A stretch of 64,000 bases of DNA from a phage (GCA_017864995.1 GCA_017864995.1_4097.1); one strand, 5' to 3'. Counted from the first letter of the stretch, positions 47,919 to 64,000 are shown. Notes: generated from the letters alone by a model not told the origin. Numbers and translations: made by a program.

Positions 47919-47988
47919 AATTCCCTCCTTTATTCTTTATACTATATTTAATCAAAAAGAAAAGCCAGTACTCTGTACTGGCACTATA
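47919..47988 (-). promoter_or_regulatory. conserved intergenic cassette: terminator hairpin + promoter-like box + SD
   Basis: minus-strand reading: GCCAGTAC-AGA-GTACTGGC + TTTTCTTTTTG, then TTGATTAAATATAGTATAAAGAATAAAGGAGGGAATT-ATG. Confidence 0.6.
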
Positions 47989-49338
47989 TTACAACAAATG
48001 TATTTCTGTGAGTGTTTGATATGTTACACCGTTGTACACACCTCTCCAATATACCTTACCTTCAGTACTAACCACTAATAATCCATATGTTGTAAACCCA
48101 AGAGTACCACCAACATACATAGCATCTTTGATTTTAATACCAATGTCTTCATATGTAAATGAAGCGACTGCTCCCGCTTGCCATGAAGGACTAGCATAGT
48201 AATCACTATAAACACCATGTGCTTTATATATTGATGTTGTTCCGGGTTCAAAAATTACAGTTCCACAGTAGTTCATTCGTATTTTGGTACTGGATGAAGT
48301 TGGTACATTTATACCTACATCATCTTTAATCCCTGTAGTTAGGACGTTAAAACCACCCGCTACACGGTTGACGTCATTCGCACCGATTAGAAACATACCA
48401 ACGTTGTAGCCCATATAATACACACTACTTGTACCATTCCAGAAAGAAAAACCACCACCATTACCACAGCGATATAGTTGTGAATTTGAGCAGTACATCA
48501 TGCCTTCGTTTGTTGCATCAAAATCATCTGCTGTTCCGATTACAGCCACTGTAGTCCACGTTTTAATCACTTGGTTTGTACTAGCTGGTTTTTGTATACC
48601 ATATCGTATATTATATCCCTTACCTACGATTGTACCATCTTCTAATTTGGCATAAAGTACAGGTCTATTACCAACAAAATACACATTATTATGTGACATG
48701 TCTATTGTGCATCTTAATGAAACTGCTTTTTGTGTCAATTGATTATCTTTAGTAAAAGAAGTAAAGTAGTAATCTGATGTGGAGTTGTTTATTAAACCTT
48801 GAATCGACAAACCCATATACCAGATTTCACCATTAGTGTTCAATGCTGCCAAAATACAACTATATTTTGAAGTGTATGCTGGGGTTAATGATGTTGCTGG
48901 ACCTTTATCATATCCACCACAGAATACCATTTCCACAACTTCACCTACGTTAGTAAAATAAGAAGATACATTTATAAAACCATTTGTTATAAAAGGTGCT
49001 GTAGTTATACTTGAATGTGTGAATATTCCATTTGCATATACACCACAAAAATGATATGAACCATCATTATCTTTAACTATTATTCCATTTGATAGTAGCC
49101 AAAAATTGTTTACATTTTTTCGTACTAATTCAATTCCTGTACCATTGGTTGGTGTTATACCAAAAGAAACATATTTTGTTTGACCAATACCATATAAATT
49201 TCCATTTGATGCTAATATTGCACCAAACCAATTACCACCACCATTCCTATCATGACCCATACCAATGGAGTCGAATTTCTTTACAGTTGGAACATCTACT
49301 GTATTCCCATAATCAAATAATCTAACAAAAGGTAACAT
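47989..49338 (-). CDS. RCC1-like repeat protein, MLPF family paralogue 3
   Basis: N-terminus MLPFVRLFDYGN; no terminator upstream, so probably co-transcribed with 49349..50528. Confidence 0.6.
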   Translation of the reverse strand: MLPFVRLFDYGNTVDVPTVKKFDSIGMGHDRNGGGNWFGAILASNGNLYGIGQTKYVSFGITPTNGTGIELVRKNVNNFWLLSNGIIVKDNDGSYHFCGVYANGIFTHSSITTAPFITNGFINVSSYFTNVGEVVEMVFCGGYDKGPATSLTPAYTSKYSCILAALNTNGEIWYMGLSIQGLINNSTSDYYFTSFTKDNQLTQKAVSLRCTIDMSHNNVYFVGNRPVLYAKLEDGTIVGKGYNIRYGIQKPASTNQVIKTWTTVAVIGTADDFDATNEGMMYCSNSQLYRCGNGGGFSFWNGTSSVYYMGYNVGMFLIGANDVNRVAGGFNVLTTGIKDDVGINVPTSSSTKIRMNYCGTVIFEPGTTSIYKAHGVYSDYYASPSWQAGAVASFTYEDIGIKIKDAMYVGGTLGFTTYGLLVVSTEGKVYWRGVYNGVTYQTLTEIHLL

Positions 49339-49348
49339 ATATTCCTCC

Positions 49349-50528
49349 TTAAACTTGTGGTAGTGGGTATTCTGTTAACGTCCATGTACCAACAACTGTT
49401 CCAATTGGTGACCTACCCGTGTAATATAATTTATTATCCGCATACACAAATAATGCACCATCATTGGCAGCAACCAATGAGGTATCTGGATCAAATACCA
49501 AAGAGGTTGGAAATTGTGTTTGAACGAAAATCGAAGCATTGTTAGTTGAGTTGATGCCGAGTTGCCCCTGGTTATTATACCCAGTACCAAAAATACGTTT
49601 CCCATTTCTATACAATATACCCCTTGAACTTTGTGAATGTAGTGGTATAAATTCAAAATCGGAAACATCAGTTAATTGTAAATAAGTACTTTGTGGAGTT
49701 AATGATGTCTTATTAGTATTGGTTGTAATTCCATTACCTAATTGTCCGCACTACTTGTGCTCCTACGCCATATAGCGGATAAGTACCATCTGAATAAAGA
49801 ACTATACCCAACATATTAGTATGTGAAAAAATATCAATGGGATATTTCCCAGGACCAAAATCATACTTTGTCCAACTCGTTAATGTAGCCGAAGCAGCAC
49901 CAGTTAACAACGTACCAGAAGTAGTTTTACCACATCGCCACGCAGTATTATCATTCTTAATTATCCAAGTTGGACTATTAAAAAATGAACTAACCTTTTT
50001 GACATTAATATTAACCTGAGTTAATGATGTAAGCATTTCTGAAGTAGTACCCAACTCATATGTAGAATTGTCACCTATAGCATAAAGAACCCCACTATTT
50101 GTTAGTACAAACATATTACGAGCATTAGGATATATCTCTTTAATATTATCTATATCAATACTAGAAAAATAAGAAGTACATTCAACAAATGTAGTACTTT
50201 GTACTGAATTTGATGTACCTGTCCAAATATCCCAACCTGCATAATAAAATTTATTATCATTTGTCTGTACTAAACTAAATGAAGCATTCCTGGTGCACCA
50301 GAAATTTTTCACATTTTTCATTAAGAGAACCCAGTTGTTCTGTGTGGTAGTATTTCCAAGTCCGAAAATACCAGCGTTGTTTCCTCCTATACCCCACAAA
50401 TCACCATTCTTATACAGAAGCATTAATGTATTGTTGATAAACGCCGATGGTGCTTGCATCTTAATTACATTAGATTCATAAACAGGTTTAACATTCCCGT
50501 ACTTAACCATTCTTGCAAAAGGTAACAT
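49349..50528 (-). pseudogene. RCC1-like repeat protein, MLPF family paralogue 4, interrupted by +1 frameshift near 49746
   Basis: N-terminal 264 codons (50528..49734, MLPFARMVKYGN) continue in the +1 frame to 49349; junction ...LYGVGAQVV-[C]-GQLGNG... restores the conserved RCC1 motif. Confidence 0.5.
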
Positions 50529-62766: not shown

Positions 62767-62837
62767 ATTTCCCTCCTTTATTCATTATACTATATTTAAT
62801 CAAAAAGAAAAGCCAGTACAGAGTACTGGCATAGTAT
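62767..62837 (-). promoter_or_regulatory. conserved intergenic cassette
   Basis: hairpin GCCAGTACA-G-AGTACTGGC at 62812-62830 plus conserved box. Confidence 0.6.
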
Positions 62838-63965
62838 TCAAAAAGGTAAATCAATTTGCTTAGTAATAATAGTATCTAACGGTATTGAACACAATGAGAA
62901 ATTCTTTCCACCCGTATTTTCAGGATTATATCCATTCATCCATACATTATTACCTTCGTAAAATGTATTCCAGTATAAAGACCCACTATATCGTGTATTC
63001 GAATTGAACGATGTAAAATTGAATTCTTGAAATGCTGTAAAATATGGAAGGGAACTTGAACTACTTCCCGTAAATGGGGTATGCCCAGTTGCTATTAGTT
63101 TGTTTGTATCTGCATTAATTAAAAATACAACACTAGTAGAATAGTCCAACGAATCAGGATGATATATATTACTCATATCACCTATAGTAAAACCAACATC
63201 AAAAACTTTACTATGTGCACCACTACCAGCAAAAGTAGTTCCAGTTGCATATATTTTATTATCAGATGTTATCATTACAAAACCAACACCAGAAACAAAA
63301 CTGCATTTTATATCATAAGATATATCATCAAACAACGGAACAAATGTGGTTGCATCACCCGATGTTGCTTTAACTTGAAAGCTGTTATTTGAACCTGAAC
63401 CATATACAGTTCCATCGTTTTTAATCTTAAACAATGTATCGCCAAGGTAACCGCCAAATATATTATCCACATTAGTGTCAAGTACAGTCCACGCTGAAAC
63501 ATAATTTTTATGTCCTAAACCTAATGTACCACTTCGATTCCATCCTCTTCCATAAAGTGTACCGTCTTTCATTAATATAAATGCTGTATAACCACATAAC
63601 ATTTTTTTAATTTGGGTAACATCTATACCAGTGAAATACACAGCCCAGTCAGTATATCCTTGTTGGAAAGTATTAGAATTCGTGAATGCATATGTTGAAC
63701 CTGAACCATATATTTTATCACCTTTAATAACAACGGAAAACGATCCTAACCATAAGTCATCAACTTCAGTTGTGATTTGTTGAACTGCTCCTAACGATAC
63801 AAACTGTGTACTTAAACCCGCATTATAGTTTGAATCTTCACCGTGTGCATATACAGTGCCATCTTGCATTAGAAACATTTCAAGAGTGTAACTAACAACA
63901 CTTTTCTTTATATTATTAACTTCGATTATATTCCCATAATCAAACATTCTAACAAAAGGTAACAT
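62838..63965 (-). CDS. RCC1-like repeat protein, MLPF family paralogue 15
   Basis: N-terminus MLPFVRMFDYGN; conserved upstream box begins at 63966 and runs off the window. Confidence 0.6.
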   Translation of the reverse strand: MLPFVRMFDYGNIIEVNNIKKSVVSYTLEMFLMQDGTVYAHGEDSNYNAGLSTQFVSLGAVQQITTEVDDLWLGSFSVVIKGDKIYGSGSTYAFTNSNTFQQGYTDWAVYFTGIDVTQIKKMLCGYTAFILMKDGTLYGRGWNRSGTLGLGHKNYVSAWTVLDTNVDNIFGGYLGDTLFKIKNDGTVYGSGSNNSFQVKATSGDATTFVPLFDDISYDIKCSFVSGVGFVMITSDNKIYATGTTFAGSGAHSKVFDVGFTIGDMSNIYHPDSLDYSTSVVFLINADTNKLIATGHTPFTGSSSSSLPYFTAFQEFNFTSFNSNTRYSGSLYWNTFYEGNNVWMNGYNPENTGGKNFSLCSIPLDTIITKQIDLPF

Positions 63966-64000
63966 AATTCCCTCCTTTATTCATTATACTATATTTAATC

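Follow-up and report, generated by a model that had tools for sequence, protein, structure and literature searches.

A composite terminator-promoter-leader cassette that probably doubles as a recombination site in the RCC1-like gene array of an Asteriusvirus genome

In T4-like phages, the PeSL and PmSL cassettes are composite terminator-promoter motifs that mediate modular shuffling (PMC2839356; PMC4122927), and they are the closest described counterparts of the element considered here. This element is an intergenic cassette repeated in a tandem array of RCC1-like genes, on the minus strand of a 64,000-nucleotide stretch of phage DNA (GCA_017864995.1; hereafter the window, meaning the whole stretch analysed). 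An earlier note on this DNA had described the unit as a hairpin with a T-rich tail and a promoter-like box, running on into conserved codons, and had suggested that it might serve both expression and gene shuffling. The cassette is probably a composite regulatory unit made of a terminator, a promoter without a -35 element, a strong Shine-Dalgarno (SD) sequence and a 36-nt coding leader, which doubles as a recombination site and is likely to depend on a late sigma factor. According to this explanation, the stem-loop and U-tract would end the upstream transcript, the TAAATA-N3-TATAAT promoter and the AAGGAGG sequence would drive the next gene, and most paralogues would thereby be autonomous transcription units. 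The 60-110 bp of near-identity, set between gene bodies too diverged to recombine, would act as sites of homologous recombination at which whole beta-propeller genes are deleted, inserted, replaced and reordered among Asteriusvirus genomes. The promoter would most likely be of a late or structural class, read by the gp55-like late sigma of the phage group, rather than a TTGATT/TATAAT promoter for the RpoD-like sigma.

By megablast, the window belongs to Asteriusvirus (121Q/PBECO4-type; the group of 121Q, PBECO4 and phAPEC6), which are jumbo coliphages of ~350 kb. Positions 14000-38000 are collinear and 98-99% identical with WPEC5, vB_Ec-M-J, Turkey3, BF17 and others (eight relatives), and at least 80% of this flank is found in one place in 28 records, whereas positions 44000-64000 are covered to 15-39% in any record, in many pieces. 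A collinear and near-identical flank is thus set against a mosaic array, as in the hyperplastic region described for PeSL. The promoter box was found in 41 related-phage records, with 1-16 copies in each and 5-16 in the 37 closer records, so the box is not absent from related phages, which the earlier note had named as a refuting outcome.

The array and its intergenic cassettes

The array holds 15 minus-strand paralogues in tandem, encoding RCC1-like beta-propellers (Pfam), with starts at 63965, 62766, 61571, 60314, 59173, 57962, 56782, 55532, 54301, 53039, 51817, 50528, 49338, 47918 and 45952. Their bodies share 12-35% amino-acid identity (median 19%). A promoter box lies upstream of 12 of the 15, and 11 of these 12 also have a stem-loop, counting that of gene 63965, which presumably lies past the window end. 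The cassette reads, in order, a CCAGTAC..GTACTGG stem-loop, a U-tract, the box, AAGGAGG (SD) and ATG. By pattern count, GCCAGTACNNNGTACTGGC (two mismatches at most) is matched six times and the 36-nt box TTGATTAAATATAGTATAATGAATAAAGGAGGAATT (three mismatches at most) seven times, the latter always on the minus strand of the array, against 0.00 expected in both cases. Cassettes of the window were aligned with those of ten further phage loci (11 phages from three host genera, including Salmonella phage Munch and Erwinia phage Hallingskeid), comprising 88 copies and 62 distinct variants. The succession of hairpin, T-tail, promoter-like box and strong SD, leading into conserved codons, that the earlier note had proposed is confirmed.

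A near-identical unit, type A, stands at nine junctions (63965, cut by the window end, 62766, 56782, 55532, 54301, 53039, 51817, 50528 and 47918), and a diverged unit, type B, at two (61571 and 60314). The junction of gene 45952 carries a further cassette variant in which no hairpin was found. The cassette is absent at the junctions of genes 59173, 57962 and 49338, where the upstream stop codon lies in or beside the SD (TAAGGAGG or TAGGAGG). These three, which the earlier note had already picked out (at 59174, 57963 and 49339) as lacking the cassette, look like translationally coupled operon junctions. The features are as follows.

63930..64000, minus strand: junction of gene 63965; leader 63965..63930, SD AGGAG 63976..63972, core TAAATATAGTATAAT 63997..63983, hairpin past the window end
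62731..62833, minus strand: type A, gene 62766; hairpin 62833..62809 (-12.4 kcal/mol, z -4.7), U-tract, core TAAATATAGTATAAT 62798..62784, SD 62777..62773, leader 62766..62731
61536..61641, minus strand: type B, gene 61571; hairpin GTCAGTACTGAAATATGTACTGGT 61641..61612, core TAAATACTGTATGAT 61606..61592 (TGn + TATGAT), SD GGAGA, leader
60279..60387, minus strand: type B, gene 60314; hairpin ACCAGTACTGAAAATATGTACTGGT 60387..60357 (-16.3 kcal/mol), core TAAATACATTATAAT 60350..60336, in which TGTAAATA matches 7/8 of the late box, SD GGAGA, leader
59138..59184, minus strand: junction without cassette, gene 59173; stop of the upstream gene directly followed by the SD (TTAAGGAGAGAAATATG), leader kept, homology breakpoint in relatives
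57927..57972, minus strand: junction without cassette, gene 57962; upstream stop TAG overlapping the SD (ATAGGAGGAATTATG), leader kept
56747..56849, minus strand: type A and leader, gene 56782; cassette of a frame-broken gene
55497..55598, minus strand: type A and leader, gene 55532; hairpin 55598..55573 (11 pairs, -17 kcal/mol), core 55563..55549
54266..54372, minus strand: type A and leader, gene 54301; hairpin 54372..54345 (12 pairs, bidirectional, -21.1 kcal/mol, z -7.0), longest T-run, core 54333..54319
53004..53107, minus strand: type A and leader, gene 53039; hairpin 53107..53082, core 53070..53056
51782..51884, minus strand: type A and leader, gene 51817; hairpin 51884..51859 (-18.9 kcal/mol), core 51848..51834
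50493..50595, minus strand: type A variant, gene 50528; imperfect hairpin, core TAAATATAGTATAAC
49303..49349, minus strand: junction without cassette, gene 49338; GTTTAAGGAGGAATATATG, leader kept
47883..47985, minus strand: type A variant, gene 47918; hairpin 47985..47961, core TAAATATAGTATAAA, last base of TATAAT changed from T to A
45917..45983, minus strand: outlying paralogue 45952; core TAAATAAAGTATAAC, SD and leader MLPFVLLFDYGN, without hairpin
46685..46709, both strands: bidirectional terminator-like hairpin AAAGCCAGTACATTGTACTGGCTTT at the 3' end of the array, between convergent genes (-20.7 and -21.4 kcal/mol)
44797..44823, both strands: bidirectional hairpin AATCCAGTACTATAATAGTACTGGATT after paralogue 45952..44828, between convergent genes

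Paralogue 45952 and the plus-strand gene 46030 have a common divergent intergenic region. The frame of gene 56782 is broken near codon 45 and resumes in an open reading frame (ORF) ending at 55603; Ecwhy_1 has this split annotated as well, and EC22.5-2 carries it at 99% identity. Gene 50528 stops at 264 aa, being truncated or frameshifted, and continues in another frame to 49349. Truncated versions of such genes (245-269 aa) are seen repeatedly among relatives, and gp007 of phAPEC6 is among the proteins detected in virions. At cassettes, the UE-S1 GenBank record has annotated 'repeat_region' features of 104-105 bp and 'terminator' features. Literature searches found no description of an Asteriusvirus cassette, the fEgEco12, UE-S1, phAPEC6 and RaK2 papers being silent on it. 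Recent tandem duplication was rejected as the origin of the cassette identity, since bodies as diverged as these separate cassettes that are nearly identical.

The hairpin has the appearance of an intrinsic terminator serving the gene before it. Its stems have 7-13 pairs, with folding energies of -10 to -21 kcal/mol and z-scores of -2.6 to -7.0, and are followed by UUUUCUUUUU; with one exception they start 2-5 nt past the upstream stop codon. A G+C-containing stem-loop, a U-run and a position past the stop codon, as expected for intrinsic terminators, are thus all present, and terminator-like sites number 26 in the region vs 8.1 +/- 3.0 in shuffles. The hairpin of the earlier note is therefore real, but its pattern with an NNN loop is too narrow: a 4-nt loop falls outside it in four of the eight type A hairpins visible in the window.

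It could be argued that the hairpin is primarily a site for protein binding or recombination at the DNA level, derived from the CAGTACTG/AGTACT motif and acting beyond or instead of an RNA terminator. Across the genome of the relative EC22.5-2 (352 kb), no 8-mer is more over-represented than this motif, CAGTACTG, with 204 copies against 3.4 expected by composition and 11.3 by an order-2 Markov model; the stem arms CCAGTACT and AGTACTGG likewise rank among the top 8-mers, and a DNA-level role was also speculated by the PeSL authors for GGGG..CCCC stems (PMC2839356). Such a reading nevertheless appears unlikely, as the hairpins lie 2-5 nt past stop codons with U-tracts after them, their palindromic stems are kept while the loops vary, which fits RNA folding, other terminators of the window use the unrelated stem GGGTTGACTTCGGTCAACCC, and copies of CAGTACTG are mostly single rather than in inverted pairs. 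As an observation in its own right, AGTACT occurs 187 times in the window vs 21.8 expected (for example at 4369, 4790, 5101, 5860, 22050, 37229 and 39961), and the motif is found both in the spacer of early promoters and in the stems of array hairpins. About 70% of its copies are in coding DNA, although the rare CTG codon is used. The motif could be a binding, modification or priming site; a literature search on CAGTACTG returned primer sequences only.

Promoter core and promoter class

TAAATA is invariant in the 61 genuine cassette variants, and its distance of 3 nt to TATAAT is kept in 60 of the 61, the remaining one, from UE-S1, having 5. TATAAT is usually perfect, with TATAAA (five copies across the loci compared), TATAAC, TATGAT, TATTAT and TATATT tolerated, and lies 16-17 nt from the ATG. 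The length of the T-run, the hexamer before TAAATA (the TTGATT position) and the distance from hairpin to core (8-16 nt) vary across cassettes, and type A has TAG in place of TGn ahead of the -10. A two-hexamer sigma-70 scan of the region did not detect the cassette, and the conserved -35 element of PeSL early promoters and of sigma-70 promoters is absent. The 3' arm of the hairpin (CTGGCT) was rejected as a -35, its distance to the core being variable, unlike the fixed geometry of the plus-strand GGGTTGACTTCGG cassettes. The divergent RpoD class with a 'TGAAACG -35', reported for CBB and GAP32, was also rejected after a pattern search of the window and phAPEC6, in which matches were scattered, mostly intragenic and never at a cassette.

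In the window, TTGATT and TATAAT do lie 8 bp apart, as the earlier note had pointed out, and this arrangement is fixed in eight copies. Together with the presence of a sigma-70-family ORF at 18673-19638, it could be read as a novel bipartite promoter class for the phage-encoded sigma. This is very improbable. TTTGAT precedes TAAATA in only 34 of 96 copies, about a third, and in otherwise conserved cassettes TTGATT is replaced by TTGTAT (all phAPEC6 copies), TTTGTA (type B), GGGGTA and AATTAA (Munch, Hallingskeid), the phAPEC6 form amounting to a natural mutation experiment on TTGATT. TTGATT was accordingly discarded as a promoter element, and because it is not conserved, the puzzle of the 8-bp spacing dissolves. 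In sigma-70-family holoenzymes, steric constraints do not allow regions 2 and 4 to make their contacts at such a spacing. The ORF itself is a genuine member of the sigma-70 family, with Pfam matches to regions 2 and 3 and an RpoD_Cterm alignment spanning positions 4-220 of 238, region 4 included. A sigma-70-family sigma with region 4 needs a -35 element. The part of the earlier note that tied this protein to the cassette remains unsupported, there being no -35 at a fixed distance, and nothing links the cassette to the RpoD-like sigma of 18673-19638.

A late promoter depending on a -10-like element only, which the earlier note had offered as its second option, fits better, given the invariant core and its occurrence outside the array before tail tube and virion genes. 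EC22.5-2, with a genome of 351,992 bp, has 16 copies of TAAATA-N3-TATAA[T/C/A] in all, of which 13 are in the array; the others precede a tail tube gene (phrog_4542, 8e-80) and a virion structural gene (phrog_10468, homologue of window 13898-12741), or, in one case, are non-genic, so that all but one of the 16 stand before a gene of the array, the tail tube gene or a virion-protein gene. At its tail tube gene, this relative carries GCTAAATA-N3-TATAAT. In the window, the type A cassette and the late cassette of virion gene 32557 align block by block (stem-loop, TTTTCTTT, TAAATATAGT and GAATAAA). The late box TATAAATA is found 13 times in 200 kb of phAPEC6; ten of these copies stand immediately before genes with an SD, among them those for the major head protein and for several virion proteins verified by mass spectrometry, with nATAAATA as the wider class of this box; in the whole EC22.5-2 genome, TATAAATA is strongly avoided, with 8 copies vs 53.6 expected from composition. 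The array box ATTAAATA matches the late box at 6/8 positions and the type B form TGTAAATA at 7/8, in each case with TAAATA kept and no -35. An ATAAATA late motif has been predicted in the related Rak2-like phages CBB and GAP32 (PMC5259590), phAPEC6 gp237c is annotated as a late sigma, and mass spectrometry of phAPEC6 virions identified eight RCC1-like proteins of the array (PMC7247149). Because the core precedes tail tube and virion genes and aligns with the late cassette of 32557, because array proteins occur in virions and because phAPEC6 has a late sigma, the cassette promoter is considered, on balance, to be of a late type without -35, an assignment held somewhat less firmly than the overall explanation of which it is part.

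Several points weigh against this assignment. The array box reads ATTAAATA, whereas the late boxes of head and baseplate genes read nATAAATA, and outside the array xTTAAATA is rarely close to genes (2/42 for T/C/G-TTAAATA). A perfect TATAAT, present in most copies, also resembles a -10 of sigma-70 type, and an extended -10 TGn is seen in some variants, namely those of 61571 (ACTGTATGAT) and Hallingskeid (ACTGTATATT), similar to ACTGTATAAT of the early promoters. Literature searches found no transcript 5' or 3' ends or transcriptomes for Asteriusvirus. A TATAAT-like element at a fixed 3 nt past canonical late boxes was sought, and rejected, there being none among 23 gene-proximal ATAAATA sites.

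The main alternative is accordingly a promoter of sigma-70 type lacking the -35, with the same architecture and the same role in recombination. TATAAT would then be a -10 read either by sigma-70 of the host or by the RpoD-like sigma that the phage encodes (18673-19638), and the array, which lies within an early-gene region, would be early, middle or constitutive. Against it, the last T of TATAAT is A in five kept copies and C in others, while TAAATA is invariant. This last T is critical for sigma-70. Moreover, a -35 at a fixed distance is lacking although the phage sigma aligns through region 4, the distance of 16-17 nt from TATAAT to ATG would leave a 5' untranslated region of only ~10 nt, the composite core fronts tail tube and virion genes outside the array, and the array products are found in virions. 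This alternative is thus thought to be rather unlikely, and the late-type promoter is retained as the preferred assignment.

Other promoter-like elements of the window are described here for their own interest. Late boxes TATAAATA lie at 31286-31293 and 32528-32535 (plus strand), upstream of 31326 and 32557, and ATAAATAcgtTATAAT lies at 13925-13939 (minus strand), upstream of 13898-12741; each of the three genes has a PHROG match to a 'virion structural protein' family, and virions of phAPEC6 contained the homologues. Late genes thus lie scattered through the early-gene region. A plus-strand cassette, AAAAGGGTTGACTTCGGTCRRCCCTTTTTGCTATAATyATTTCATC, occurs before plus-strand genes at 28123-28155, 34760-34792, 39384-39416 and 41452-41484, with a variant at 31717-31750. 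A near-consensus early promoter, TTGAC(T/A)-N10-CAGTACTGTATAAT(G), is repeated on the plus strand at 4355-4382, 4776-4803, 5087-5115, 5846-5873, 22036-22063 and 37215-37242, with an almost identical spacer in several copies.

Whole-gene mosaicism and the shared leader

Homology ends were located by local BLAST of window positions 44000-64000 against the arrays of seven relatives, which gave 34 informative ends of high-identity blocks. Twenty-nine of the 34 lie within -60..+90 of an array ATG, vs a null of 11.7%, with clusters at -30..-49, where the leader block ends, at +1..+16 and at +65..+76 (the hairpin). The other five correspond to one site beside the terminal hairpin 46685..46709, with a boundary at 46715 common to five relatives, and none of the 34 ends is inside a gene body. 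Apart from G14, for which there was no match, the gene bodies of the window have orthologues at 96-100% identity, the set of phages that carries them differing from gene to gene: vB_Ec-M-J alone has G1, Turkey3 alone has G13, G7 is limited to Ecwhy_1 and EC22.5-2, and the best match of G11 is in phAPEC6. The order of array genes differs between phages, for example in BF17 and vB_Ec-M-J, and one upstream sequence may lead into a certain leader and body in one phage and into others in another. The suggestion of the earlier note that the blocks act as recombination portals is well supported by this concentration of ends, by mosaic content and order, and by flanks that are 98-99% identical. The cassette is thus inferred to be a PeSL-like shuffling unit extended into the coding leader, with recombination as the cause of the mosaic.

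It may also be proposed that the cassette is conserved only for its expression signals and is not a preferred crossover site, mosaicism arising from differential loss or illegitimate recombination. The functional positions (core and SD) are indeed the most conserved, with loops and T-runs drifting, and breakpoints at the edges of conserved blocks would be expected under any whole-gene exchange. This proposal is nonetheless quite improbable: no end falls within a gene body, gene order and not just gene presence differs between phages, identical upstream halves are fused to different bodies, the synonymous sites of the leader are homogenised beyond codon bias, and recombination of the T4 type needs less than 50 bp of homology (PMC2839356). 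Two cautions apply to recombination at the cassette. Because breakpoints also occur at the junctions that lack it, the 36-nt leader and SD alone may be a sufficient boundary, with the intergenic cassette as a passenger; and breakpoints at block edges indicate whole-gene exchange units, not necessarily the exact crossover point or the enzymology.

The leader is the most widely shared part of the unit. The same 36 nt (start ATGTTACCTTTTG) open every one of the 15 genes, even where the cassette is lacking, and encode MLPFVRMFDYGN (MLPF...), with the 12-residue consensus MLPF(V/A)RM(F/V)(D/K)YGN. The conservation of these codons at the nucleotide level, noticed in the earlier note, is confirmed by a synonymous-codon identity of 0.83 over the first 12 codons vs 0.48 expected from gene-body codon usage, and the rare GGG codon is used at 12 of 14 Gly positions of the leader; the link to the cassette made in that note is looser than stated, the block being present in every gene. 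EC22.5-2 has 15/15 leader-bearing genes in one array, and the peptide is kept across genera, as MIPFARIMKYGN in Munch and Hallingskeid. In an AlphaFold model (built on a shallow alignment of 13 sequences), the propeller starts at about residue 20, with a TM score of 0.75 to UVR8/RCC1, and residues 1-18 lie outside it with pLDDT <50. A role of the leader as a 'velcro' strand closing the propeller was rejected on the basis of this model, in which those residues have no secondary structure.

The leader MLPFVRMFDYGN, together with a cassette variant, is also found on Kelch-repeat proteins within the RCC1-like arrays of relatives, namely vB_Ec-M-J EcMJ_585 (22781-23686) and two genes of Turkey3 (17043-17933 and 18007-18954; locus coordinates), and one leader-bearing Kelch-repeat protein is annotated as a virion structural protein. 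In the window, the leader is also borne by gene 49338-47989 (449 aa), for which Pfam gave no match and PHROG a weak one to RCC1. A short conserved peptide at the N-terminus is thus carried by otherwise unrelated virion proteins (the virion data being from phAPEC6), as with the capsid targeting sequence (CTS) of T4 internal proteins (IPs), and this suggests a virion-targeting or attachment tag that is CTS-like in its logic. No consistent protease motif was seen by inspection after YGN. A more speculative possibility, put forward tentatively, is that the array is a plug-and-play locus for virion-borne beta-propellers, in which the leader would be the virion-incorporation tag and functional analogue of the T4 CTS, and the 36 nt and the late-type cassette together would serve as a universal socket. 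Homologous recombination could bring any body into this socket, where late expression and packaging or display would already be provided for, so that the proteins carried or displayed could be re-assorted for anti-defence or adsorption. If this is true, a phage population could rapidly re-assort its set of virion-borne proteins.

Two further observations concern the window as a whole. Six tRNA genes are clustered at positions 3662-7734 (Ser-TGA, Ser-GCT, Met, Asn and two Thr-TGT). Many GC-rich 6-bp palindromes (AGCGCT, CAGCTG, CCATGG, CGATCG and others) are absent, which is consistent with avoidance of restriction sites.

Comparison with known systems

The proposed cassette offers a concrete explanation of why Asteriusvirus genomes, 98-99% identical elsewhere, vary most in the RCC1-like array. 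It also provides a candidate second form of late promoter (TAAATA-N3-TATAAT) and a candidate virion-targeting leader, with a possible use in loading foreign proteins into phages that are therapeutic candidates, and it corrects the attractive but wrong reading of TTGATT and TATAAT as a promoter with 8-bp spacing.

As in T4-type late promoters (TATAAATA, read by the gp55 sigma; CBB/GAP32 motif, PMC5259590), the array promoter is independent of a -35, AT-rich, contains TAAATA and fronts virion-protein genes, and a gp55-like sigma is encoded in the phage group. In phAPEC6, TATAAATA fronts head genes and is strongly avoided elsewhere in the genome. The array differs in its box, ATTAAATA (6/8) or TGTAAATA (7/8), and in a TATAAT that is always 3 nt on and that most canonical late boxes lack. 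Closer at hand, the plus-strand cassette of the window, GGGTTGACTTCGGTCRRCCC-TTTTTGCTATAAT (28123, 34760, 39384, 41452), is likewise a repeated terminator stem-loop fused to a promoter. Unlike the array cassette, this family has its -35 TTGACT inside the stem, in the 5' arm, and TGn-TATAAT at a fixed 17-18 nt, and is thus a true PeSL of sigma-70 type.

With regard to the leader, the T4 IP genes with a CTS (PMC3012670) share a short conserved N-terminal peptide, diverse virion proteins and a locus that varies between close relatives. The array leader is unrelated in sequence to the T4 CTS and its bodies are large propellers, so that the likeness is a functional conjecture only.

The closest resemblance is to the PeSL and PmSL of T4-like myoviruses (Arbiol et al. 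2010; Comeau et al. 2014), in which a terminator stem-loop, a promoter and an SD are repeated among non-essential genes of a hyperplastic region. There, as here, genes between cassettes are inserted, deleted or replaced among close relatives, with breakpoints in the cassettes, and transcriptional insulation would make each swapped gene self-sufficient. In contrast to these systems, the array cassette belongs to the Asteriusvirus lineage of ~350-kb jumbo phages. Its promoter has no -35 and is not an early sigma-70 promoter, having its own, probably late, core TAAATA-N3-TATAAT; its stem is CCAGTAC..GTACTGG instead of the G(n)..C(n) of PeSL; and its genes are ~1.2-kb paralogous beta-propellers found in virions, where PeSL genes are small ORFans. 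Finally, the tract of homology runs 36 nt into the coding sequence, unlike that of PeSL. The idea behind PeSL, that a regulatory cassette is also a socket for recombination, would in this way be extended to a jumbo-phage lineage, to another promoter class and into coding sequence.

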